From positions 1 to 35,981 of the IMG/VR virus record IMGVR_UViG_2563366990_000012: a stretch of DNA of 35,981 nucleotides; one strand, written 5' to 3'. Position numbers and translations under genes: made by a program. Below are positions 1 to 35,981 of the stretch, one piece after another (the stretch's first letter is position 1; every line of letters begins with the position of its first letter). Origin of the DNA: a virus. Taxonomy: Duplodnaviria > Heunggongvirae > Uroviricota > Caudoviricetes. The notes beneath the pieces were generated by a model that made no database searches, was not told where the DNA came from, and saw only the letters and a program-made list of their open reading frames with translations.

Positions 1-1362
1 ATGTTTAAACCGGAACTCCTTTCCCCGGCGGGAACGCTGAAAAATATGCGTTACGCTTTCGCTTATGGCGCAGATGCTGTTTATGCGGGCCAGCCGCGTT
101 ACTCCCTGCGTGTGCGCAACAACGAATTCAACCACGAAAATCTTCAGCTCGGCATCAATGAAGCCCACGCGCTGGGGAAAAAGTTTTATGTCGTGGTCAA
201 CATTGCACCGCACAACGCCAAGCTGAAAACCTTTATCCGTGACCTGAAACCGGTGGTGGAAATGGGGCCGGATGCGCTGATTATGTCCGATCCAGGGCTG
301 ATTATGCTGGTGCGTGAGCACTTCCCTGAAATGCCGATCCATCTCTCGGTACAGGCTAACGCCGTGAACTGGGCGACGGTGAAATTCTGGCAGCAAATGG
401 GCCTGACCCGCGTGATCCTCTCTCGCGAGCTGTCGCTGGAAGAGATTGAAGAGATCCGCAATCAGGTGCCGGATATGGAGATCGAGATCTTCGTTCACGG
501 TGCGCTGTGCATGGCCTACTCCGGTCGCTGCCTGCTCTCTGGCTATATCAACAAGCGCGACCCGAACCAGGGTACCTGCACCAACGCCTGCCGCTGGGAG
601 TACAACGTCCAGGAAGGGAAAGAAGATGACGTTGGCAACATCGTACACAAGTACGAGCCAATTCCGGTGCAAAATGTTGAGCCGACGCTGGGTATCGGCG
701 CGCCAACCGACAAAGTGTTTATGATCGAAGAAGCCCAGCGTCCGGGCGAGTATATGACCACGTTTGAAGATGAGCACGGCACTTACATCATGAACTCGAA
801 AGATCTGCGCGCCATCGCCCATGTTGAACGCCTGACCAAAATGGGCGTGCATTCGCTGAAAATCGAAGGCCGTACCAAATCTTTCTACTATTGCGCACGC
901 ACCGCGCAGGTTTACCGTAAAGCTATCGATGACGCCGCTGCGGGCAAACCGTTCGATACCAGCCTGCTGGAAACGCTGGAAGGTCTGGCGCATCGTGGCT
1001 ATACCGAAGGTTTCCTGCGTCGTCATACCCACGACGATTATCAGAACTACGAATACGGTTATTCGGTTTCTGACCGCCAGCAGTTTGTTGGTGAGTTTAC
1101 CGGTGAGCGCAAGGGGGAGCTCGCGGCGGTAGCGGTGAAAAATAAATTCTCCGTTGGCGACAGCCTTGAGCTAATGACGCCGCAAGGCAACATTAACTTT
1201 ACCCTTGAGCATATGGAAAACGCCAAAGGTGAAGCAATGCCGGTCGCACCAGGCGATGGTTATACTGTGTGGCTCCCGGTGCCGCAGGATCTCGAACTGA
1301 ATTACGCGCTGCTGATGCGTAATTTCTCCGGTGAAACCACGCGTAACCCCCACGGTAAGTGA
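1..1362 (+). CDS. yegQ: U32-family peptidase-like protein YegQ (23S rRNA 5-hydroxycytidine synthase RlhA), 453 aa
   Basis: Full-length ORF starting MFKPELLSPAGTLKNMRYAFAYGADAV, recognised as E. coli YegQ; the known chromosomal neighbour of cyaR and the P2 locI site. Confidence 0.9.
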   Translation: MFKPELLSPAGTLKNMRYAFAYGADAVYAGQPRYSLRVRNNEFNHENLQLGINEAHALGKKFYVVVNIAPHNAKLKTFIRDLKPVVEMGPDALIMSDPGLIMLVREHFPEMPIHLSVQANAVNWATVKFWQQMGLTRVILSRELSLEEIEEIRNQVPDMEIEIFVHGALCMAYSGRCLLSGYINKRDPNQGTCTNACRWEYNVQEGKEDDVGNIVHKYEPIPVQNVEPTLGIGAPTDKVFMIEEAQRPGEYMTTFEDEHGTYIMNSKDLRAIAHVERLTKMGVHSLKIEGRTKSFYYCARTAQVYRKAIDDAAAGKPFDTSLLETLEGLAHRGYTEGFLRRHTHDDYQNYEYGYSVSDRQQFVGEFTGERKGELAAVAVKNKFSVGDSLELMTPQGNINFTLEHMENAKGEAMPVAPGDGYTVWLPVPQDLELNYALLMRNFSGETTRNPHGK

Positions 1363-1446: not shown

Positions 1447-1533
1447 GCTGAAAAACATAACCCATAAAATGCTAGCTGTACCAGGAACCACCTCCTTAGC
1501 CTGTGTAATCTCCCTTACACGGGCTTATTTTTT
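1447..1533 (+). ncRNA. cyaR: CyaR (RyeE) CRP-dependent Hfq-binding sRNA
   Basis: Sequence GCTGAAAAACATAACCCATAAAATGCTAGCTGTACCAGGAACCACCTCCTTAGCC followed by terminator hairpin and T-run matches my recollection of CyaR; lies in the yegQ-ogr intergenic region as in E. coli K-12. The 3' end overlaps the prophage att core. Confidence 0.8.
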
Positions 1534-1534
1534 A
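1507..1534. repeat. Prophage att core, left copy (ogr-proximal, attR-type junction); 28-bp direct repeat AATCTCCCTTACACGGGCTTATTTTTTA
   Basis: Exact 28-bp identity with 34153..34180; flanks read gtAATC.../...TTTAcgcg here versus taAATC.../...TTTAtaca at the right copy. Overlaps the cyaR terminator. Confidence 0.9.
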
Positions 1535-1597: not shown

Positions 1598-1621
1598 AAA
1601 AAAGCCCCTCGACTGAGGGGC
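1598..1621 (-). terminator. Rho-independent terminator downstream of ogr
   Basis: Minus-strand hairpin GCCCCTCAGTCGAGGGGC followed by TTTTTT (plus strand aaaaaagcccctcgactgaggggc). Confidence 0.7.
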
Positions 1622-1634
1622 TTCCTGTTTGTAA

Positions 1635-1853
1635 TTACATCCACATAATTTGCTGCCCTGACGGCAACGGGTGCGGTCTTACGGCGTGGACTTCTCCCGG
1701 CTTCACGATGTATCGCTGTACCGACTCATAAGTGATGAACGTGGCGCTGCAATTCACGTTCTGGCACTGGTGATAACGCTCTTTTGTCGTGTCAGTGATA
1801 TAGCGACTTGTACGCGCATGTGCGGCATGCTGGCATAAAGGACAATGAAACAT
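1635..1853 (-). CDS. ogr: Ogr late-gene transcriptional activator (zinc finger), 72 aa
   Basis: MFHCPLCQHAAHARTSRYITDTTKERYHQCQNVNCSATF with the Cys4 motif. The track ORF 1635..1916 was trimmed to the internal Met to match the 72-aa Ogr length. Confidence 0.9.
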   Translation of the reverse strand: MFHCPLCQHAAHARTSRYITDTTKERYHQCQNVNCSATFITYESVQRYIVKPGEVHAVRPHPLPSGQQIMWM

Positions 1854-8357: not shown

Positions 8358-8649
8358 CGCCTGTCATGATTTGTACTCACTTATTTCCCGACTGACAATT
8401 TACATAGCCAAAACGCTATCAAATCTGACAGTCTGCTTTGAGCGAGAAGCGGAAGTTCAATGTGATAAAGCTCAGGAACATTGTCGTTGATGATGATAAA
8501 GAGGATCAGACTAACTTAGCACTTCTCATCACGTTGATAAGGCATAGAAACTGCAAACACTATTGTGAATATAATTTCACTATAGTAAATTAAAGTAAGC
8601 TCTTTTCGTTCGTTATTACATAAAATAAAGTTCTCTCTAAGGTTGAAAA

Positions 8650-9093
8650 ATGTTAGATATCAGAATGTCACGACCATCTGAAGCATCAGAGATCATACAA
8701 ATCTGGAAGAGTTCAGTGGATGCTACCCACGACTTTCTTACAGGTCATGACCGACAAGAAATCGAAAAAGAAGTTATCGGCTTTTTCTCAGAAACTCCTG
8801 TATGGGTTGCAACAAATCAGGATGACCAACCGCTAGGATTTATGTTTTTGCATGAGGGGCATCTGGAGGCACTTTTTGTAGCAGGCTCTGCTCGCGGACT
8901 TGGCGTCGGAAAACGTTTGATATCTCATGCACTGGCGCTGCATCCAGAGCTAAGCGTTGATGTAAATGAACAAAACCAGCAGGCTGTAGGGTTTTATCAG
9001 CATATGGGTTTTCAGGTATCAGGGCGTTCCGATCTGGATAATCAGGGAAGGCCATACCCCTTGTTGCATCTGAGAATGGCCAATAACATGTAA
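8650..9093 (+). CDS. GNAT-family N-acetyltransferase, 147 aa (cargo at the Z/fun position)
   Basis: Acetyl-CoA binding motif region ...EALFVAGSARGLGVGKRLISHAL... and QQAVGFYQHMGF typical of GNAT folds; about 40% GC versus about 55% for the backbone. Confidence 0.75.
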   Translation: MLDIRMSRPSEASEIIQIWKSSVDATHDFLTGHDRQEIEKEVIGFFSETPVWVATNQDDQPLGFMFLHEGHLEALFVAGSARGLGVGKRLISHALALHPELSVDVNEQNQQAVGFYQHMGFQVSGRSDLDNQGRPYPLLHLRMANNM

Positions 9094-9113
9094 CCAATGT
9101 GGCAGAGAAGATA

Positions 9114-9698
9114 TCATTGATTTTTTTGGCTAAAAGCCACGATGTAAGAACAGCTCTGCTCACTATCTGGATTGCTCATTTGGTACTCGCTTGCAAAGGT
9201 AAGGGCAAGACAGTCACCGGCACGTAAATGATGGGTCTGATTTTTGACTCGAAAATCAAGGCTGCCACTCATCATCCAAAGCGTTTGCCCGGAAAGATGC
9301 TCATTTGCGGAGGCGGGTATCGTCAGCTCACCCATTGCAGGGATTTCAACTTTGATCAGTTCCGGGCATGCCCCCGCAGGAGACAAAGACCAACGGGTGA
9401 TGCCTGATTGCTCATCCGTCCAGTGCTGTTGCTGATGAGCAAAACGAACCAGGGAATTCTGATGTTGCTCAAGCTCTGCAAAGAGTTTAGATAGCGTTAC
9501 ATTCATGGCGTTGGCCAGGCGGCTAAGGATAGTTGCACTAGGGCTGGAGATGCCTCGTTCAATCTTACTAATCATGGCCTGACTGACGCCCGATCGTTGA
9601 GCAAGCTCTGTTACAGTCAAATTGCGAGCCTTCCTGTGTTTAAGCAATAAACGTGCAATATCGCTATCTACTATCTGATTTTTAAATTTTTTATCCAT
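9114..9698 (-). CDS. XRE-family HTH transcriptional regulator with C-terminal cupin domain, 194 aa
   Basis: N-terminal HTH LLKHRKARNLTVTELAQRSGVSQAMISKIERG plus a C-terminal cupin-like segment. Start trimmed to MDKKFKNQ, which is preceded by GAGAGGG. Confidence 0.75.
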   Translation of the reverse strand: MDKKFKNQIVDSDIARLLLKHRKARNLTVTELAQRSGVSQAMISKIERGISSPSATILSRLANAMNVTLSKLFAELEQHQNSLVRFAHQQQHWTDEQSGITRWSLSPAGACPELIKVEIPAMGELTIPASANEHLSGQTLWMMSGSLDFRVKNQTHHLRAGDCLALTFASEYQMSNPDSEQSCSYIVAFSQKNQ

Positions 9699-9933
9699 TT
9701 CCGCCCTCTCTTTCACCAACCTGATTATGCCATTACATAAATTGGCCTGAAATAAATGATTTTGTAAGTCTGTAAATTCACTACTCCTAAGCGCGGCACT
9801 TCGTTTATACGCACCTATAACCTTAAAATATGAGTTGGTAAGCTTAACGTCCGCTTTTGGCACATAGCGGACTGTCAGATTAGGCTTTACTCTGTGCTAT
9901 AGATATGTAAGCTCACACCAGAGATCATACAAC

Positions 9934-10464: not shown

Positions 10465-12510
10465 TTACACCTGTGCGACGTTATACCATGTGCCATTGAT
10501 GTATTTTTGTATTGGCCTGAATACTGCGGGGTCATCACCATCGACTTCACCGACAATACCAAGCCCGGTAATTACGTGCCCTGCTTTCTCATACATCACC
10601 CCTTTCTGCATGGTCTGGACAACACGTGTGCCAAGTCTGATATCTCTCACATAGCGGGAATCAAAGTTACCGTAATCCGAGGGATTAACACGCCCCGTAA
10701 TATTTATGGTCTTATTACTTTGAATGCTTCCGGAAACAAAGCGCATAACATGGACGTTATTAGCATAAACATCCAGATTACCATCGCCATTTTGTTTAAA
10801 TCCGGTGTCGTTATCACCAAGAACAATAGAGTTCCCACCCAACGCGTTATTCGTGCCAAGTGCCAGCCCGCCATCAATCCTGGCACCATTACCAACAGAC
10901 ACAACTCCTGTTCTTAAGTTGATGCCGAATGGCCTTAATGACCCAATATCTCCATTTTCACCCTCATTTTCTCGTGTAGGAATGATATACAGGTTTTCTT
11001 CAGAACGGCGAAAAATAGCACCAAAAGATGAATTAAATATCCTCAGCGCATTGACTGTAGATATTTTTACTTCACTACTGAAAAGGGCTTTAACAAGAAC
11101 ATACAGAGCATCCCATTTAAGATTCATCAGGTCTTTTGTTGTGGTGCTCTGGCGACTTCTCCATTTGAAATATTCATTGCCGTTGTCACCTGTTTCAAAC
11201 CACATATATGAATCAGTATCGCTGTCGGCATCATTTTTAAATCCAATCTTTGCCCAGTCAGTATTTCGAATCCAGGCAAGGATTGAGTCGTTTTCAAAAG
11301 TAAGCCCGCCGGACAAGGTATCGCCATTTTTTTGCACGGCGTTCCCGGCTCGGTTTACCGTTTCCTGTAAACCGAGATATTCGATAACGGCGGCAACGGT
11401 CGATTTAGCCAGAATATCCCGCCCGACTTTTGTCAGGGTCGCCAGGCTGGCAACATCATTCCCCGTAAAATACGGAAACCTGTCTGCCGCAGTAGCAAGC
11501 CCCGCCAGCGCCGTCAAAGTGGCATCTTTCGGTTGCTTACCCGCAAGCGCATTAGTCATGGTGGTAGCAAAATTCGGGTCATTGCCCAGCGCCGCCGCCA
11601 GCTCGTTCAGCGTATTCAGTGCGTCAGGCGACGAGTCTACAAGGGCGGCAATCGCGGCCATAACGAAAGCCGTGTTTGCGATCTGAGTATTATTCGTTCC
11701 CTGTCGCGCAGTTGGCGTCGTTGGCGTTCCGGTCAGTGCAGGGCTGTTTAATGGCGCTTTCTTGTTCGTTTCATCCATTACCGTCTTAACGGCTTTTGGT
11801 GTTGCGGCGAGCGTTTCAGACATGCTGTTGGTCGCACTACTTAGCTGGACAAGACCTTTTCGCGCTGTGGTAGCGTCCTGTGCGGTATATTTCCCGTTAG
11901 CAAGGTCATACGCGGCCTTTACCGCTTTCGGCGTTGCGGCCAGTGTTTCAGACGTGCTGTTGGTCGCACTGCTTAACTGAGTAAAACCTTTGGCGGTCAG
12001 CGAGGCGTCCGGGTGACGTCGTGACTGTTCGTGCTCTGCAATTTTGTCATCAACGTAATCCTGTGTCGCCATCACCGTTGTGGTGTCAATGGTCAGCTCC
12101 ACCGAGGCCACACTGCTGACGATGATGACCATGCGACAGGTCTGCGAACGCCCTGAGCCTTCGGCAAGAGCTGGCTTATAACTTTCGGCCATGTTCGCCA
12201 CGGCAATTAACGTTCCCGCATCATCGTACAGGCCAAGCTCACGCATCCAGAAACCGCCCACCTCCGGCGGAATAACCAGCTCTGCGATAATATAATTACT
12301 GTTTCGTTTGTCCTGGCTGATTTTGTTCAGCGTATGTCGCCAGACTTCGTGGATAAGCCCGGTCTGTCCGGCATCCGGGACAGGCAATTTACCACCGCCA
12401 TCCCCGACGGCCATCGTGGTAATGTTGACCTTCCGCCCTCCCGGTGCGGTTGCCGCTGCCAGCTTTGCTGCACCGGCAGTGGTGATAACGGTTTTGAATT
12501 TTGTGCTCAT
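10465..12510 (-). CDS. H: Tail fiber protein gpH, 681 aa
   Basis: N-terminus MSTKFKTVITTAGAAKLAAATAPGG, internal phage fiber repeats (SETLAATPKAVK twice), C-terminal receptor-binding region. Confidence 0.9.
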   Translation of the reverse strand: MSTKFKTVITTAGAAKLAAATAPGGRKVNITTMAVGDGGGKLPVPDAGQTGLIHEVWRHTLNKISQDKRNSNYIIAELVIPPEVGGFWMRELGLYDDAGTLIAVANMAESYKPALAEGSGRSQTCRMVIIVSSVASVELTIDTTTVMATQDYVDDKIAEHEQSRRHPDASLTAKGFTQLSSATNSTSETLAATPKAVKAAYDLANGKYTAQDATTARKGLVQLSSATNSMSETLAATPKAVKTVMDETNKKAPLNSPALTGTPTTPTARQGTNNTQIANTAFVMAAIAALVDSSPDALNTLNELAAALGNDPNFATTMTNALAGKQPKDATLTALAGLATAADRFPYFTGNDVASLATLTKVGRDILAKSTVAAVIEYLGLQETVNRAGNAVQKNGDTLSGGLTFENDSILAWIRNTDWAKIGFKNDADSDTDSYMWFETGDNGNEYFKWRSRQSTTTKDLMNLKWDALYVLVKALFSSEVKISTVNALRIFNSSFGAIFRRSEENLYIIPTRENEGENGDIGSLRPFGINLRTGVVSVGNGARIDGGLALGTNNALGGNSIVLGDNDTGFKQNGDGNLDVYANNVHVMRFVSGSIQSNKTINITGRVNPSDYGNFDSRYVRDIRLGTRVVQTMQKGVMYEKAGHVITGLGIVGEVDGDDPAVFRPIQKYINGTWYNVAQV
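11780..11985. repeat. Imperfect ~138-bp tandem duplication inside H encoding the repeated fiber motif
   Basis: DNA segments GCGGCGAGCGTTTCAGACATGCTGTTGGTCGCACT and GCGGCCAGTGTTTCAGACGTGCTGTTGGTCGCACT about 138 bp apart; the protein shows a duplicated LSSATNS(T/M)SETLAATPKAVK motif. Confidence 0.7.
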
Positions 12511-24023: not shown

Positions 24024-25057
24024 TGAGCAAGAAAAAAGGGAAAACACCGCGACCAGCGGCAAAAACAATGACCGCCAGCGCCCCGAAAATGGAGGCATTC
24101 ACCTTTGGTGAGCCGGTGCCGGTACTCGACCGCCGTGACATTCTGGATTACGTCGAGTGCATCAGTAACGGCAGATGGTATGAGCCACCGGTCAGCTTTA
24201 CCGGTCTGGCAAAAAGCCTGCGTGCTGCCGTGCATCACAGCTCACCGATTTACGTCAAACGCAATATTCTGGCCTCAACATTTATCCCGCATCCGTGGCT
24301 TTCGCAACAGGATTTCAGCCGCTTTGTGCTGGATTTTCTGGTGTTCGGTAATGCGTTTCTGGAAAAGCGCTACAGCACCACCGGTAAGGTCATCAGACTG
24401 GAAACATCACCGGCAAAATATACCCGCCGTGGTGTTGAGGAGGATGTTTACTGGTGGGTGCCGTCCTTCAACGAGCCGACACCTTTCGCGCCCGGCTCCG
24501 TGTTTCACCTGCTGGAGCCGGATATTAATCAGGAGCTGTACGGCCTGCCGGAATATCTCAGCGCCCTTAACTCTGCCTGGCTGAATGAGTCGGCCACGCT
24601 GTTCCGCCGCAAGTATTACGAAAACGGCGCGCATGCCGGATACATCATGTACGTCACCGATGCCGTGCAGGATCGCAACGATATCGAAATGCTTCGCGAA
24701 AACATGGTGAAGTCGAAAGGCCGCAATAACTTTAAAAATCTGTTTCTCTATGCCCCACAGGGGAAAGCCGACGGCATTAAAATTATCCCGCTCAGTGAAG
24801 TGGCAACGAAGGACGATTTTTTTAATATCAAAAAAGCCAGCGCCGCTGACCTGCTGGACGCGCACCGCATCCCCTTTCAGTTGATGGGCGGCAAGCCGGA
24901 GAACGTCGGGTCGCTGGGTGATATTGAGAAAGTGGCAAAGGTCTTTGTCCGCAATGAGCTTATCCCGTTACAGGACAGGATCCGCGAGATAAACGGCTGG
25001 CTCGGTCAGGAGGTCATCCGCTTTAAAAACTACTCACTGGACACTGACAACGACTGA
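24023..25057 (+). CDS. Q: Portal (capsid vertex) protein gpQ, 344 aa
   Basis: Start overlaps the P stop (ATGA); length equals P2 Q. Confidence 0.92.
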   Translation: MSKKKGKTPRPAAKTMTASAPKMEAFTFGEPVPVLDRRDILDYVECISNGRWYEPPVSFTGLAKSLRAAVHHSSPIYVKRNILASTFIPHPWLSQQDFSRFVLDFLVFGNAFLEKRYSTTGKVIRLETSPAKYTRRGVEEDVYWWVPSFNEPTPFAPGSVFHLLEPDINQELYGLPEYLSALNSAWLNESATLFRRKYYENGAHAGYIMYVTDAVQDRNDIEMLRENMVKSKGRNNFKNLFLYAPQGKADGIKIIPLSEVATKDDFFNIKKASAADLLDAHRIPFQLMGGKPENVGSLGDIEKVAKVFVRNELIPLQDRIREINGWLGQEVIRFKNYSLDTDND

Positions 25058-25245: not shown

Positions 25246-25392
25246 CGCCCGCTTCATGCAGGGCTTTAAATGCAGTGCAGCAGTAATGGTTAGAATGCGC
25301 CAGCACTGATGTTAGATACCAGAACTGGCATTTAAAAATGAATGCAAATAAATGCACCAAACTAATTACTTACTGACAAAAAATAAGTAAAA

Positions 25393-26277
25393 TCAGGCGC
25401 AAGTTGGCATTGAGACCCCTTTCAGGGTATTAGGAATAATTATTTCAGGAGAAAAAATCATCACTTCCTCTCCAGATTTTTTGAGATGCGCTGTATATTG
25501 CAATGAATACTCAACTTGCGGAAATCCATTATAAATATCTTTAATTTCCTTAGCGTTATCATAAGAAACAAGCCAATTTGGGAAATTAATTTCTGTGAGT
25601 TTCTTCATAACCAATACATGGTCATCATGCTCATAAAAATTCCTGTAAAGCCCTTGCCCTTTAATATAGTAAGGAGGATCCAAATACAAAAGAATTTTAT
25701 TTTTATCCACCTTTCCCATATTATCCATAAAATTCAAGGCATCAAGAAAATCCAAAGCATCCAGATTAGTTACTACTATTCTTTGATTATAATTTGCTAT
25801 CTTCTCAATTCTTGAAATTAAATCCGCCCTGTTAAAGCGAACATCCATTTTCCATTTTCCATTTTGTGATTTCCCGCCTATAACCCCCGCCTTGAGAATA
25901 CCTGAACGATTTGTTCTATTTAAGAAAAACGCAGCAAAGCCAACCTCAAGCTTAGTAAACTCAGAAGGATTCGAAATAACATAGCGATGAAAAGACCATT
26001 CATCCATATCTATCTTTGCTCGGCTAATAAGTCGGCAAAGCTCATCAGTATCACTAACAACAGATGACCAAAAAGAATAAACAGCAAAATCTGCATCATT
26101 TATATAGATTTTACGGACATACTCTTCCAATAATAATTCTAAAGCCACCCCTGCACCACCAGCGTAAGGTTCTGCATATGCTCCATCATTCAACGAGTTT
26201 TTTTCAATAACATCTTTTAAAAAGTAAGATAACTTACCTTTCCCGCCGGGGTATCTTAATGGAGTATAAAATTTCAT
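25393..26277 (-). CDS. Dam-family (alpha-class, D12-like) N6-adenine DNA methyltransferase, 294 aa
   Basis: N-terminal PLRYPGGK and SAM-binding EPYAGGAGV motifs, catalytic DPPY (LLYLDPPYYIKG) near the C-terminus; GAGG 6 nt upstream of ATG; about 33% GC. Confidence 0.85.
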   Translation of the reverse strand: MKFYTPLRYPGGKGKLSYFLKDVIEKNSLNDGAYAEPYAGGAGVALELLLEEYVRKIYINDADFAVYSFWSSVVSDTDELCRLISRAKIDMDEWSFHRYVISNPSEFTKLEVGFAAFFLNRTNRSGILKAGVIGGKSQNGKWKMDVRFNRADLISRIEKIANYNQRIVVTNLDALDFLDALNFMDNMGKVDKNKILLYLDPPYYIKGQGLYRNFYEHDDHVLVMKKLTEINFPNWLVSYDNAKEIKDIYNGFPQVEYSLQYTAHLKKSGEEVMIFSPEIIIPNTLKGVSMPTCA

Positions 26278-26314
26278 AAATCCCTCTCATTCCTGATTTT
26301 GTAGTTTATCAGTT

Positions 26315-26332
26315 TCTGGACATCCATGTCCA
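26315..26332. promoter_or_regulatory. Perfect palindrome CTGGACAT-CC-ATGTCCAG between the ParB-like gene and the methyltransferase gene
   Basis: 8-bp arms and 2-bp centre in the 70-bp intergenic spacer; candidate operator or attenuator hairpin. Confidence 0.5.
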
Positions 26333-26346
26333 GATGTAGACAAATC

Positions 26347-27852
26347 TCACTCACTCCAAATAAGGCTTAATAACAACTCAAAGTTATCCCACTCAGTGTT
26401 GACAGCCTCTTTTGAGGGAATTAAGTGTGGGTTATGTACATACTGCTGCAATGAACCATCATGTTTAGTTATTTGGCTCGAGAAAGTTATTACAGCCGTA
26501 CATTGACTCCCCGTCATCTTTTTATTTTCCCGAAGGAAATTAGCACACATTTTAACCTTATCATGAAGCCCTGGAGTTCTATGTGGTTCCTTAAATTGTA
26601 ACTTGTTTTCTTCAACAAAAGTGCTTACAGAGAGATCTATAAATATTCTCAACAATATTGAGATAGCATTAGGGGTGTTATCAAATGTCAGATGCGACTT
26701 AAGCTCATTAAATATTCTAGAGCATTTCTTATGCCCTCTAAAATTAAATTTCACATAAGATGGCACCAACACATTACGATCTACTTTAGGAGGAGTTTTT
26801 CCCTTGTTTTTATTCTGTTCCGTACCCGAAACTTTAGATTTACTCTCTTCTGTGCCTACATGTCTAGAATAATCATCTTCCTGTTTATCCACACCTGTAT
26901 TCTTTAAGGCATCACCTTCTGAAAGACCTACTTTCTTTACACTCACAGATGCATCATTTTTGTCAATAGAATCATGTTTTTTCTCTGTAAGAAAAGATTT
27001 AGGCTCCAGTAAACTCCACGGCTTATCTAAAAGAGATTCTGAAGGTTTTATTTTTTGTTCAATAATAAATGTAACCCTGTCATCTTGGCTACGAATCCTA
27101 TTAACAGTAAAACAAGCCTTACCTTTATCATCCTCTTCAATCATTACATCTAAAATATTTTTTAATTGTGCACAAAAACGTTCATAAGGCTGATATGAGT
27201 ATAGAACTCCATTAATGCTTTTTAAATTAAAATAATCCCTCACCTTTAAATCACCAAAAAGACGCGTGATGTTTGTGATTTTTAAAAGTCTTTTTTTAGC
27301 AATTATCTCTTTATATAAATCAGTATTGAACTCTATAAATGTAAGTATTTGATTACCAAATGACTGCTTACCCATCCTAGCCAGATGTCGTGCTTTTTCT
27401 GTTGCAGTCCATTCAACTCTTCCAACTCCAGCATTTTGACCAGTATGCTTTAAATTGACCCAATGCTCATATTCATCATCGTCAAAAAGAACGCAGTTAT
27501 CTATAACATTAATATCTTTAAGCTGAGTAATCTTAAGTTTTTCAAAAGCTTTCCGTGCTTTTTCTGTTGGTGCAAGTCTAGGAGAGTGTAAAAGTTTAAG
27601 GGCTGTAACTCGACGATTACCTTCAGCAACGACGAAAAACCCAGATTCCTCTTCACTAGGATAAACTAATATGTTTTCAGACGGATCTAAACCTTTCGAA
27701 GCAATATCTTTAGCCAAGCGATAAATGCGGTCGTACTGCAAGTCAAGCATCTTGGCAATAGCATCACGCTGATTTTCTGCTGACGTCGGGAAACGAGGGT
27801 TATCAACATCCAAAAGTAACTTATTGATATTCATTGATTTTAGTTGATTCAT
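26347..27852 (-). CDS. ParB/Sulfiredoxin-like domain protein with a large uncharacterised C-terminal region, ~501 aa
   Basis: N-terminal ParB-like motif (LLDVDNPRFP ... FFVVAEGNRRVTALKLL), Lys/Glu-rich low-complexity linker, about 170-aa C-terminal domain. Start placed at MNQLKS, 7 nt after AGAGGA; the ORF could start up to 27921. Confidence 0.7.
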   Translation of the reverse strand: MNQLKSMNINKLLLDVDNPRFPTSAENQRDAIAKMLDLQYDRIYRLAKDIASKGLDPSENILVYPSEEESGFFVVAEGNRRVTALKLLHSPRLAPTEKARKAFEKLKITQLKDINVIDNCVLFDDDEYEHWVNLKHTGQNAGVGRVEWTATEKARHLARMGKQSFGNQILTFIEFNTDLYKEIIAKKRLLKITNITRLFGDLKVRDYFNLKSINGVLYSYQPYERFCAQLKNILDVMIEEDDKGKACFTVNRIRSQDDRVTFIIEQKIKPSESLLDKPWSLLEPKSFLTEKKHDSIDKNDASVSVKKVGLSEGDALKNTGVDKQEDDYSRHVGTEESKSKVSGTEQNKNKGKTPPKVDRNVLVPSYVKFNFRGHKKCSRIFNELKSHLTFDNTPNAISILLRIFIDLSVSTFVEENKLQFKEPHRTPGLHDKVKMCANFLRENKKMTGSQCTAVITFSSQITKHDGSLQQYVHNPHLIPSKEAVNTEWDNFELLLSLIWSE

Positions 27853-27873
27853 CAACATATCCTCTGTTGAATC

Positions 27874-27906
27874 TTTATGATAAAAATTAATTATTTTTAT
27901 CATAAA
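27874..27906. promoter_or_regulatory. 33-bp inverted repeat (13-bp perfect arms TTTATGATAAAAA / TTTTTATCATAAA) in the 5' leader of the ParB-like gene
   Basis: Read directly from the sequence; centred about 35 bp upstream of the preferred start codon. Confidence 0.55.
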
Positions 27907-28208
27907 TGATAGCGTAAACATAGTCTTATGAACGACATCAGCCCTGAAGCTTCAAAACTATCATTTACGTTTGCGAGGCACCATCTATCACATTGATTTA
28001 TAATAAGTATCTTTATCTTCACTGCATTGCTCTCAAAAAATCACATAGATGGAAATTCCCCGTTGACACACTCCCAAGTGATGCAGATACATTTCAAGTG
28101 CTTCATACACATGATAACGGCTATCCCCCTAAATTCTGTGCGTTTCTTTTCCCTCCAGCACAAGGTTGAAATATCTTGCGTGCAGCTTTACTTTGTGAAT
28201 CTTTGTCA

Positions 28209-32076: not shown

Positions 32077-32261
32077 ACCCTCCGGCTTTTCAGAAAGGTC
32101 AGAGCCTTTTTTAACGGACTCTGTTTTTTGGTGCGGATAATGATTCCCTTACGCCCCTTACCGTGGGTGATGGTGAAGTCAATCGCCCTGGGGCTTTCGT
32201 TACGCAATAACTGAGCAATACAACGAGGCTCATTCATACGGTTCTCCTTAACGTGGTTCAC
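32067..32261 (-). CDS. Small basic hypothetical protein (P2 orf78 position), 64 aa
   Basis: Short ORF between cox and B; start uncertain. Confidence 0.4.
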   Translation of the reverse strand: MNHVKENRMNEPRCIAQLLRNESPRAIDFTITHGKGRKGIIIRTKKQSPLKKALTFLKSRRVWK

Positions 32262-32523
32262 CGAGACCTAACCACATCAACCAGCCGTCACGAATCTCTT
32301 TAGGACGGCTTTCATAAGCCAGTTTTAGTCCGTTATTCCATGCCGGAAGGTATACCCAATATTCACCAGCACGCCCCGATACTGACTGAGGGTCAGTAAT
32401 CTCAATAACTGGTAATTTCCCTTTCTCAATCATACCCCTTACAGCTCTTGGAGTTTTACCAATGAGTTTTGCAAACTCCTGATAAGGCACGGCATCAGTC
32501 ACGCTTACAAGCTGTCTATTCAT
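32248..32523 (-). CDS. cox: Cox excisionase / Pc repressor, 91 aa
   Basis: PYQEFAKLIGK...GKLPVI...GRAGEYWVYLPAWNNGLKLAYESRPKEIRDGWLMWLGLGEPR closely matches P2 Cox as I recall it. Confidence 0.9.
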   Translation of the reverse strand: MNRQLVSVTDAVPYQEFAKLIGKTPRAVRGMIEKGKLPVIEITDPQSVSGRAGEYWVYLPAWNNGLKLAYESRPKEIRDGWLMWLGLGEPR

Positions 32524-32644
32524 CTGCTACGATTCTCCCTTAGTGCTTCTAATGGCTCCTAATGGCTAATTATTGCCTAAAAGGATAACTCCAGAAGCAC
32601 AACATTTCACACTATCAGCAAGAAATTACGCAATCGGAGTAATT
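32524..32644. promoter_or_regulatory. Pe/Pc divergent promoter-operator switch region between cox and C
   Basis: Contains the direct repeat CTAATGGCT at 32549..32557 and 32559..32567, consistent with P2 C repressor binding direct-repeat operators. Confidence 0.55.
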
Positions 32645-32944
32645 ATGTCAATAGACGTTTCGGAGAAGTTGAAGCTAATCCGTGAATCTGAAAGGTTAAA
32701 CCGTAAAGAATTCAGTGAATTAACTGGTGTAGCCTACAGCTCACTTTCGAGCTATGAGAGCCGGTCAAAAAACGCTGGAGTTGAAGCCATAATGAAGGTC
32801 TTACAACATCCTAGATTTACTAAATATACTTTGTGGTTCATGACTGATCAGGTAGCTCCAGAAGCCGGGCAAATTGCGCCCGCTCTCGCACACTTTGGGC
32901 AAAACGAAACAACGTCGCCCCACTCCGGTCAAAAGACTGGTTAA
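32645..32944 (+). CDS. C: Immunity repressor C, 99 aa
   Basis: C-terminal half FTKYTLWFMTDQVAPEAGQIAPALAHFGQNETTSPHSGQKTG matches P2 C; start trimmed from the TTG-initiated track ORF to the in-frame ATG at 32645. Confidence 0.88.
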   Translation: MSIDVSEKLKLIRESERLNRKEFSELTGVAYSSLSSYESRSKNAGVEAIMKVLQHPRFTKYTLWFMTDQVAPEAGQIAPALAHFGQNETTSPHSGQKTG

Positions 32945-33059: not shown

Positions 33060-34073
33060 ATGGCAATCAAAAAACTCGATGATGGTCGATATGAAGTGGA
33101 CATCCGCCCTACTGGACGTAACGGAAAACGCATCCGTAGGAAGTTTGATAAGAAAAGCGAAGCTGTCGCTTTCGAAAAATACACGTTGTACAACCACCAC
33201 AATAAAGAATGGCTATCAAAACCAACAGACAAACGACGTCTGTCGGAACTGACACAGATCTGGTGGGATTTAAAGGGTAAACACGAAGAGCATGGGAAAT
33301 CTAATCTTGGAAAAATTGAAATCTTCACAAAAATAACGAATGACCCATGCGCATTTCAAATCACGAAATCCCTTATCAGCCAGTACTGCGCCACCCGAAG
33401 AAGTCAGGGTATTAAACCTTCGAGTATCAATCGTGATTTAACATGTATTAGCGGCATGTTTACAGCCCTGATTGAAGCGGAGTTATTCTTTGGTGAGCAC
33501 CCTATCAGAGGGACAAAGAGGCTTAAGGAGGAAAAACCAGAAACAGGCTATCTCACACAGGAAGAAATTGCCTTACTGCTTGCTGCTCTTGACGGCGACA
33601 ACAAAAAGATTGCGATTCTTTGCCTGAGCACTGGAGCACGTTGGGGAGAAGCAGCTCGTTTGAAAGCAGAAAATATCATCCATAACCGCGTCACGTTTGT
33701 TAAAACGAAAACAAACAAACCACGCACCGTCCCGATCTCAGAGGCTGTTGCCAAAATGATCGCGGATAACAAACGAGGTTTTTTATTCCCTGATGCTGAT
33801 TACCCTCGCTTCAGACGAACAATGAAAGCAATAAAACCGGATTTGCCAATGGGGCAAGCCACACATGCACTAAGGCACAGCTTTGCCACTCATTTCATGA
33901 TTAATGGAGGAAGTATTATCACGCTACAACGGATACTAGGTCACACGCGGATTGAGCAAACTATGGTTTACGCTCATTTTGCGCCAGAGTACCTTCAGGA
34001 CGCCATTTCTCTTAATCCGCTAAGAGGTGGTACTGAGGCCGAGAGTGTCCACACAGTGTCCACAGTAGAGTAA
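33060..34073 (+). CDS. int: P2-type tyrosine integrase, 337 aa
   Basis: C-terminal catalytic region with ...HALRHSFATHFM... and ...LGHTRIEQTMVYAHF... (R-H-R-Y signature); adjacent to the att core. Confidence 0.92.
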   Translation: MAIKKLDDGRYEVDIRPTGRNGKRIRRKFDKKSEAVAFEKYTLYNHHNKEWLSKPTDKRRLSELTQIWWDLKGKHEEHGKSNLGKIEIFTKITNDPCAFQITKSLISQYCATRRSQGIKPSSINRDLTCISGMFTALIEAELFFGEHPIRGTKRLKEEKPETGYLTQEEIALLLAALDGDNKKIAILCLSTGARWGEAARLKAENIIHNRVTFVKTKTNKPRTVPISEAVAKMIADNKRGFLFPDADYPRFRRTMKAIKPDLPMGQATHALRHSFATHFMINGGSIITLQRILGHTRIEQTMVYAHFAPEYLQDAISLNPLRGGTEAESVHTVSTVE

Positions 34074-34152
34074 CGTTTAAGGGCTTTCAGTGGTAATTTA
34101 TGCCGCTCAAACCCGCATTGTACCGTTGAAAGCCCCTACTGGTGACACCCTA

Positions 34153-34180
34153 AATCTCCCTTACACGGGCTTATTTTTTA
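34153..34180. repeat. Prophage att core, right copy (int-proximal, attL-type junction)
   Basis: Exact 28-bp repeat of 1507..1534. Confidence 0.9.
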
Positions 34181-34349
34181 TACATAAACCATAGAGACGG
34201 ATTGATCCCAGGTCACCGTCTTCCATTGACCACATCGATAGAATCTCCCTTCATAGCACGATGCCTTTCACTTATTGGCATCGTGCTCGCACAGGTTCCG
34301 GTTACGCACAGCCAGAACGCGCATGTTTGATGCTTACCAAAAAATATTC

Positions 34350-34667
34350 TCACTCTCCACATTTGAATGTCAGACGAGCGACGCCATGTAATCCTGCACC
34401 TTCTGTCTTCAGGTCAACTATCTGCATTTTTTTGCCCTGAGTAACACAGAAATGAACTGCATCATTTTTTACTATATTTTCTGCACCAGATATTCTACCC
34501 CTGGCTAAAGAAGCTTCGGCTTCGGTGTAGTATTGGTTATCGAGTTTACGCTGAATATTACTTTTATATGCAAGACCAAATTTACCGATACTTGTCTCAT
34601 CATTATGTACAGCACACCCAGACATAAGAAAAACACTAATTAATGATATAGCAGCTATCTTTTTCAT
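34350..34667 (-). CDS. yegR: Small exported protein YegR, 105 aa
   Basis: MKKIAAISLISVFLMSGCAV signal/lipobox-like N-terminus; host neighbour of yegS. Confidence 0.8.
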   Translation of the reverse strand: MKKIAAISLISVFLMSGCAVHNDETSIGKFGLAYKSNIQRKLDNQYYTEAEASLARGRISGAENIVKNDAVHFCVTQGKKMQIVDLKTEGAGLHGVARLTFKCGE

Positions 34668-35081
34668 CTCACCTTCCCCCATTAAATACCAACGACACGC
34701 TCTGGTGTTTAAATATAATAATGGCATGATTATTATAATTGAATAGGATTATAATAAATGTTCTGTACAACATTTCCTACATAAGTAGGAATTACATACA
34801 CGGATGCCCTTCCAGGTAACCCCATGGGGGGGTTAATATATTTTTAATAGTATATTGAAGATGCCACTGTTTAGTTGAATATTAGGTATATGTTCTTTTT
34901 TGAAATTTACCGGTGGCTACCGTTAATATTCGCTGTTCCCATTGCAAGCTCCTGGTGGTAACCACTGAATCCTCCATACTTGAACTGACTTTTTATCCTC
35001 CGACTTTCATCCTGTTCTGACTCCACCTTTTCTTTTCTGCTCTACACTATCTACAGTCCAATCATAAAGGCACATACGATC

Positions 35082-35981
35082 ATGGCAGAATTTCCCGCCA
35101 GCTTACTGATTCTTAATGGCAAAAGTACTGACAATCTACCCTTGCGCGAAGCAATTATGCTGTTGCGTGAGGAAGGAATGACGATCCATGTGCGGGTCAC
35201 CTGGGAGAAAGGCGATGCCGCACGATATGTAGAGGAGGCACGGAAGTTGGGCGTCGCAACGGTGATTGCCGGTAGTGGCGATGGCACCATTAATGAAGTT
35301 TCTACGGCGTTGATTCAGTGTGAGGGGGATGACATACCCGCGCTGGGAATTTTACCATTAGGAACCGCCAATGATTTTGCCACCAGTGTAGGGATTCCTG
35401 AGGCACTGGATAAGGCGCTGAAACTGGCAATTGCCGGTAACGCCATTGCGATAGATATGGCGCAGGTCAATAAACAAACCTGTTTTATTAATATGGCGAC
35501 AGGCGGGTTTGGGACGCGTATTACCACAGAAACGCCGGAAAAATTAAAAGCCGCGCTGGGTGGCGTCTCTTACATCATTCATGGCTTAATGCGCATGGAC
35601 ACTCTGCAACCGGACCGTTGTGAAATCCGCGGTGAAAACTTTCACTGGCAAGGTGACGCCCTGGTCATTGGTATTGGTAACGGGCGTCAGGCCGGTGGCG
35701 GTCAACAATTGTGCCCGAACGCGTTAATTAACGATGGCTTGCTGCAACTGCGCATTTTTACCGGCGATGAAATTATTCCGACTCTCGTATCAACCTTAAA
35801 ATCTGACGAAGATAACCCGAATATTATCGAAGGAGCTTCGTCGTGGTTTGATATACAAGCCCCACACGAAATCACTTTTAATCTTGATGGCGAACCGTTG
35901 AGTGGGCAAAACTTCCATATTGAAATACTTCCGGCGGCGTTGCGTTGTCGATTACCACCAGATTGTCCATTGTTGCGTTAA
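35082..35981 (+). CDS. yegS: Lipid kinase YegS (DAG-kinase-like fold), 299 aa
   Basis: [15 protein letters not shown]... with GGDGT-type motif ([11 protein letters not shown]); full length. Confidence 0.9.

Follow-up and report, generated by a model that had tools for sequence, protein, structure and literature searches.

The window (the whole stretch of 35,981 nucleotides that was analysed) begins and ends in host DNA. On the left, the host gene trhP is followed by the small-RNA gene cyaR, the 3' end of which adjoins a P2-like prophage; on the right, the prophage is followed by yegR and yegS. The main features are listed here by their positions in the window, with the strand where one applies.

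1–1362, plus strand: trhP (yegQ), the host gene that precedes cyaR, with Peptidase_U32 domains and the annotation trhP/yegQ in the matching E. coli records
1447–1533, plus strand: cyaR (ryeE), a small-RNA gene of 87 nt
1498–1525, plus strand: intrinsic terminator hairpin of CyaR (11 bp stem and 6 nt loop), found by folding, by a terminator scan, and in the Rfam structure line; the U-tract then runs to 1533
1507–1534: att core copy 1, at the ogr-proximal junction
1535–34152: body of the P2-like prophage (blastn against AF063097, 95–97% identity)
1601–1624, minus strand: Rho-independent terminator of ogr and the F operon
1635–1853, minus strand: ogr, late gene activator of 72 aa (100% amino acid identity to P2 Ogr; Pfam Ogr_Delta)
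32248–32523, minus strand: cox, excision directionality factor and repressor of Pc (Pfam Phage_Cox, E 1.7e-42; 84% identity to P2 Cox)
33060–34073, plus strand: int, tyrosine integrase of 337 aa (100% amino acid identity to P2 Int; Pfam Int_N, PF24624, and Phage_integrase, PF00589)
34153–34180: att core copy 2, at the int-proximal junction
34350–34727, minus strand: yegR, from the annotation of matching records (105 aa in the K-12 annotation, which would give 34350–34667)
35082–35981, plus strand: yegS (lipid kinase), placed by annotation and synteny; in E. ruysiae and Kluyvera, this is the host gene immediately after the core

The earlier note had recognised cyaR at 1447–1533, and alignment with the E. 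coli K-12 gene (b4438) bears this out, with 87 of the 87 bases identical. The Rfam family CyaR_RyeE (RF00112) matches the plus strand at 1445–1530 with a score of 100.7 bits (gathering score 47; E 3.5e-19) over the full length of the model (positions 1–85 of 85), and it is the sole RNA family that Rfam finds in the whole window. The gene lies downstream of yegQ/trhP, as it does in K-12, and the 67 bases of its promoter region (1380–1446) are identical to those of K-12 except for a single base at 1389.

The 32.6 kb between the repeats are collinear with P2 and circularly permuted at attP. Most P2 proteins, including almost all of those annotated as essential, align here over their full length and without stop codons; among the others, the tail-fibre protein H aligns with P2 H over its C-terminal 195 aa only, at 52% identity, and the match of orf91 to P2 is confined to its first 23 residues. 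The listing of open reading frames also contains a longer ogr frame that reaches 1916, and this is an artefact of the listing. At the ends of the prophage, ogr adjoins the left copy of the core, and int, which encodes the tyrosine integrase, adjoins the right copy.

Three segments of P2 have been replaced, namely the fun(Z) slot (8458–9844), the tin/old slot (25246–28127), and the immunity region (32502–32814), and a search with the P2 proteins against the window found no match to fun(Z), tin, or old among the prophage sequences. The tin/old slot contains instead, on the minus strand at 25393–27921, a two-gene PD-Lambda-5 defence system, which consists of PD-Lambda-5_A (524 aa; PADLOC E 6e-168) and PD-Lambda-5_B, a D12-class N6-adenine methyltransferase of 294 aa (E 1e-121). 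In the fun(Z) slot (8650–9863), a GNAT acetyltransferase gene on the plus strand (8650–9093; 147 aa) converges with a gene on the minus strand for an HTH_3 protein (9114–9863; 249 aa), and the pair may be toxin-antitoxin-like or defence cargo. The tail-fibre gene H is a mosaic (10468–11085 and 11785–11991), of which the C-terminal part alone aligns with P2 H; it contains a 75-nt imperfect direct repeat, the copies of which are 132 bp apart (repeat family D1). This mosaic structure suggests a different host-range module. Over the immunity region and its flank (32502–32944), the C-type repressor (an HTH_3 frame at 32573–32944) is 65% identical to that of P2 and Cox is 84% identical. Because the C repressor and Cox are no closer than this, the prophage is probably heteroimmune to P2 and, given the same divergence, the regulation of its excision may differ from that in P2.

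The two junctions share a 28-mer, AATCTCCCTTACACGGGCTTATTTTTTA, which occurs exactly twice in the whole window, at 1507–1534 and 34153–34180, both times on the plus strand and with 0 mismatches. None of 100 dinucleotide-preserving shuffles contained a match to it, and a repeat search of the window recovered the same pair (family D5). The ends of the repeat are sharp: the preceding base is T in one copy and A in the other, and the following base is C in one and T in the other. The annotated attP core of P2 (AF063097, 24356–24382) consists of the same 27 bases, so that the repeat is this core plus one base. Phage and host therefore share a core that is present as direct repeats at both ends of the prophage. 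The copy at 34153–34180 had been described as partial; it is a complete copy of the core, and it is partial only as a copy of cyaR.

In terms of the RNA, the repeat corresponds to nucleotides 61–87 of CyaR: it starts with the final 2 nt of the 5' half of the terminator stem and continues through the 6-nt loop and the complete 3' half to the end of the U-tract. The 9 nt with which the 5' half-stem begins (1498–1506) lie outside the repeat and are found in the host DNA only. The proposal of the earlier note that the core coincides with the terminator stem and U-tract of cyaR consequently holds for the 3' half of the stem and the U-tract, to which the loop must be added, but not for these 9 nt of the 5' half. 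The combination of a terminator hairpin and a U-tract is the Hfq-binding 3' module of small RNAs.

The two copies of the core differ in their capacity to fold. At the left junction, the terminator hairpin has a folding energy of −15.9 kcal/mol (z −5.7; no shuffle folds as well), whereas the right copy, in the same 40-nt frame, gives −3.5 kcal/mol (z +0.5). The terminator scan detected the site at 1498–1525 and no terminator-like site at the right junction. The right copy lacks the 5', or ascending, half of the CyaR stem, and the terminator is accordingly predicted to form at the left junction only and never at the right copy. The idea that the right core might serve as a terminator of the int transcript, or as a CyaR-like 3' module, was rejected on the basis of the same folding energy, the same z value, and the empty scan.

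Another terminator lies close to cyaR on the phage side. The Rho-independent terminator of ogr and the F operon is annotated in P2 at 24265–24288, and the same hairpin was found here at 1602–1623. Since it is located between the late phage genes and cyaR, it would be expected to shield cyaR from antisense late transcription.

The protein-binding sites that surround the core in P2 can be placed on the window. The IHF, Int arm, and Cox sites annotated in P2 map to it without gaps and in the P2 order, with a few substitutions in the IHF region, as follows.

1532–1565: predicted IHF-binding region of the P arm (homology to P2 24324–24357, gap-free alignment with few substitutions)
1569–1596: P-arm Int arm-type sites, GTCCACA at 1575–1581 and GACCACA at 1586–1592 (identical to P2 24293–24320; motif matches)
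34039–34065: P'-arm Int arm-type sites, GTCCACA at 34047–34053 and again at 34058–34064 (maps to P2 24470–24496; motif matches)
34063–34136: predicted Cox-binding region (homology to P2 24399–24472)

The arm-type heptamers (GTCCACA/GACCACA) are paired in both arms, 11 bp apart. On the evidence of the alignments and motifs, both arms, the IHF site of the P arm, the Cox sites on the P' side, and the cox gene thus appear to be in place. Because the P arm adjoins ogr, the left (ogr-side) junction is attR (POB'), and the int-side junction is attL (BOP'), in the lambda-style convention.

These features almost certainly represent a prophage of the P2 type (Peduovirus) that is complete and occupies the classic P2 site of E. 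coli, where the core is the 3' end of cyaR, the gene for a CRP-activated small RNA. Judging from the anatomy of the site and from the biology of P2, Int and host IHF would have recombined the 27–28 bp core of attP with the identical core of the chromosome. The product would be two direct copies of the core, with the ogr side joining the 5' part of cyaR from the host to the core; in the window, this join restores the hairpin, the U-tract, and the full 87-nt RNA sequence exactly. By analogy with P2, excision would require Int, IHF, and Cox at both junctions. The 5' two-thirds of cyaR would still be of host origin, and what lies to the right of the crossover would be phage-derived. In principle, the share of CyaR that is phage-derived ranges from 0 to 27 nt and is set by the crossover point within the core; the identity of the two cores means that this point cannot be read from the window. 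For the same reason, CyaR is unchanged base for base. The suggestion that integration rebuilds the 3' end of cyaR is therefore supported, in that the repeats bracket a complete P2-like prophage, the RNA sequence is unaltered, and the excised site is known elsewhere (see below). For annotation, cyaR should be entered as intact, and the boundaries of the prophage are 1507/1535 and 34152/34180.

The excised site was reconstructed in silico by joining 1100–1534 to 34181–34800 (1055 bp) and was searched for in 5,426 complete E. coli genomes. In two other genomes of E. coli, the match is 100% identical over the full 1055 bases, and in 4565 of the 5426, a single place covers 80% or more of the site. 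The junction on the ogr side (cyaR-core-ogr-D) is present in 1125 of these genomes and that on the int side (int-core-yegR) in 812. From these two counts, a P2-type element at the cyaR site is common and occurs in roughly 15–21% of complete E. coli genomes.

When one genome per species is considered, cyaR ends in the exact core in Escherichia, Shigella, many Kluyvera species, and some Enterobacter hormaechei, and the synteny trhP-cyaR...yegS is conserved in all the genera with the exact core. In the genera other than Escherichia, this core is followed by different inserts of 0.7–2 kb before yegS. Kluyvera is among the genera that carry such inserts between core and yegS (loci L006, L007, L011, L014, and L022), and in Enterobacter hormaechei B56 (499–2500 of locus L004), the insert terminates in an imperfect second core, CCCCCTTACGCGGGCTTATTTTTTA. 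Since these genera have differing inserts after the same exact core, the 3' end of cyaR seems to have been used repeatedly as a landing site beyond Escherichia. In the same set of species representatives, five genomes titled E. coli or Shigella flexneri (ECDA1023, SFBU0723, ECMA0423, ECGI0523, and SFBU1023) gave fragmented and frameshifted matches to trhP, yegR, and yegS, with unusual divergence. This observation suggests that they are error-rich assemblies rather than separate species.

Another explanation of the two cores could be that they are the scars of an old integration and that the prophage is a fixed resident that does not excise, with dead att sites. P2-type prophages are classically non-inducible and seldom excise. 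Moreover, decayed remnants are found at this same site, both in K-12, in the form of the cryptic prophage PR-X, and in the 820-bp segment described below, from which it would seem that decay in place is frequent. However, both cores are perfect, the arm, IHF, and Cox regions match those of P2, Int is 100% identical to its P2 counterpart, cox is intact, and the P2 genes that were matched have no stop codons; a dead resident is therefore unlikely. A different route of entry could be homologous recombination with a resident ogr-D' remnant of the K-12 type, rather than recombination by Int between cores. The junction on the ogr side appears to be present without that on the int side in roughly 300 of the 5426 E. 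coli genomes (a figure obtained as the difference between the two counts), as is the case in K-12, and such remnants would provide incoming P2 phages with homology. The window, however, contains no duplicated ogr/D segment and has exactly the structure core, prophage, core, and its joined flanks are 100% identical to the site in two genomes that have no ogr-D' remnant, which makes this route very improbable.

Nothing beyond the existence of the repeat itself suggests that the second copy arose by chance or that part of cyaR was duplicated locally without any link to phage integration. This explanation is refuted by the absence of any match in the 100 shuffles, by the identity of the repeat with the annotated attP core of P2, by the position of the second copy immediately after int, its P' arm, and the Cox sites, and by the presence of the excised site in other genomes together with the collinearity with P2.

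At the right junction, the match to P2 does not stop at the end of the core but continues to 34238. Two stretches in the host flank are concerned here.

34181–34240: putative fossil P arm in the host flank (repeat family D2; alignments with the P2 P arm)
34939–34996: putative fossil P'-proximal sequence and dead att core, which together form the right end of an 820-bp segment (local alignment with the window's own P' arm and core)

The first of these keeps one arm-type site, GACCACA at 34228–34234, and a 15-nt exact block, CATTGACCACATCGA. Its alignment with the P arm has a score of 25, compared to a shuffle mean of 3.9 (sd 1.8), and this score was reached by 0 of 2000 shuffles. The same sequence comes after the core where the site is unoccupied (E. 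coli, Shigella, and a cryptic lineage of Escherichia) and after the half core in K-12. A third, partial core, AATCTCCCTT, was considered at 34241–34250 and rejected: other Escherichia read ATTCCCCCTT, TCCCCCTT, or ACCTCCTT at this place, and the stretch aligns with the start of the ogr terminator of P2 and not with the core.

The second stretch, when aligned with the window's own P' arm and core, reaches a local score of 26 (shuffle mean 15.7, sd 2.2), and 7 of 3000 shuffles score as high. A better-preserved copy exists in Escherichia sp. MOD1-EC7003, where 46 of 59 positions are identical and the score of 49 is reached by 0 of 3000 shuffles. The extent of the segment between the two stretches can be seen by comparison with other species. 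The distance from the core to the start of yegS is about 100 nt in three Kluyvera species and also in E. ruysiae, which has a P2 prophage of its own and was compared at the int-side junction. The window has 820 additional bases (34181–35000), absent from E. ruysiae and Kluyvera, between the core and the sequence that adjoins the core in E. ruysiae.

The "empty" site of E. coli consequently looks like a decayed P2-like element, with a live core, a fossil P arm, yegR, a fossil P' side, and a dead core in that order, and the present prophage looks as if it were in tandem with it. We consider it likely that the core which P2 uses in E. coli is the still live core of a decayed P2-like prophage, 820 bp long, that is missing from E. 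ruysiae and Kluyvera. The chromosomal target would then not have been pristine: the incoming phage would have recombined with an intact core at the left end of a decayed P2-like remnant containing yegR. If this is true, whatever part of the cyaR terminator lies to the right of the crossover is phage-descended in all E. coli and was so before the species diversified, and yegR is either a leftover of the old element or a gene trapped inside it. An extension of this idea, in which the strong preference of P2 for the cyaR site is partly due to the arm-type site retained in the fossil arm, is much less likely, and we regard it as doubtful.

Attempts to recognise yegR as a phage gene did not uphold that possibility. 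A tblastn search against 50,697 phage records gave two records only, ON470606 and AY639599; the latter is a 2.4-kb fragment, and the former annotates its own match as YegR and has a match that also spans the chromosomal flank. The Pfam search assigned no Pfam family to yegR. A search of the available literature found no description of the yegR segment as a prophage fossil, which does not in itself establish novelty. The modestly new point is thus an evolutionary one, namely that the site has been used repeatedly and that the target in E. coli is what is left of an older P2-like element with yegR; this reading is a small addition of modest interest that is probably true.

The placement of a prophage at the terminator of cyaR, on the other hand, is correct but already known, and as such it raises no new question. 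The groups of Haggård-Ljungquist and Bertani reportedly sequenced the 27-bp core of P2 and its attachment sites around 1989–1992, including locI, the name given in the P2 literature to the preferred attachment site in E. coli. A passage in Bobay et al. (PMC3603311) refers to ryeE in E. coli as an earlier-known phage target, citing Wassarman et al. 2001. A table in the E. coli W genome paper (PMC3032704) also gives "cyaR RNA" as the site at which Wphi2 (P2) is inserted in strain W, ogr-D' in K-12, and P2*B in strain B.

The closest known system is P2 itself at its attP and preferred site. The 27-bp core is identical, Int is 100% identical, the Int arm, IHF, and Cox sites are in the same order, and the chromosomal position, between trhP(yegQ)/cyaR and yegR/yegS, is the same. 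The prophage in the window differs from P2 in its probable heteroimmunity (C 65% and Cox 84% identical) and in the other cargo that occupies its fun(Z) and tin/old slots. E. coli W and E. coli B likewise have P2-type prophages at the cyaR site (Wphi2 and P2*B, respectively), a likeness that is drawn from their table entries (PMC3032704), but these are other strains.

The cryptic prophage PR-X of K-12 (ogrK-yegZ, or "ogr-D'") has the same left junction. The K-12 RefSeq record draws it across the last 18 nt of cyaR, and positions 1380–1560 of the window, which include cyaR and the core and run into the P arm, match K-12 at 180 of 181 bases. PR-X, however, is only 629 bp long (ogr and a fragment of D) and ends in a half core, TACACGGGCTTATTTTTTT, whereas in the window the phage is complete (32.6 kb) and both cores are full. 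In K-12 (2290–2330 of locus L025), this half core is fused to the middle of gene D. An origin of this end at a core-like pseudo-site in gene D was considered, but the sequence of gene D at the point of fusion (2130–2160 in the window) has only a weak similarity to the core. Because the half core is fused to the middle of gene D, the endpoint of the deletion in K-12 would seem to lie inside the att core, and the deletion was possibly due to an aberrant event mediated by Int.

More widely, the locus resembles the integration of elements at the 3' ends of tRNA, tmRNA, and other small-RNA genes, such as ryeB/sdsR in Salmonella, where again the 3' end of a structured RNA falls within the core and the element brings a replacement copy so that the gene survives (PMC3603311; PMC3333887). 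The target in the window differs from the tRNA cases in that it is the terminator of an Hfq-type small RNA and not a tRNA acceptor or T-arm. It is otherwise a textbook case of a temperate phage that lands in the 3' end of a structured RNA and brings the replacement with it, which leaves the global regulator CyaR undamaged.
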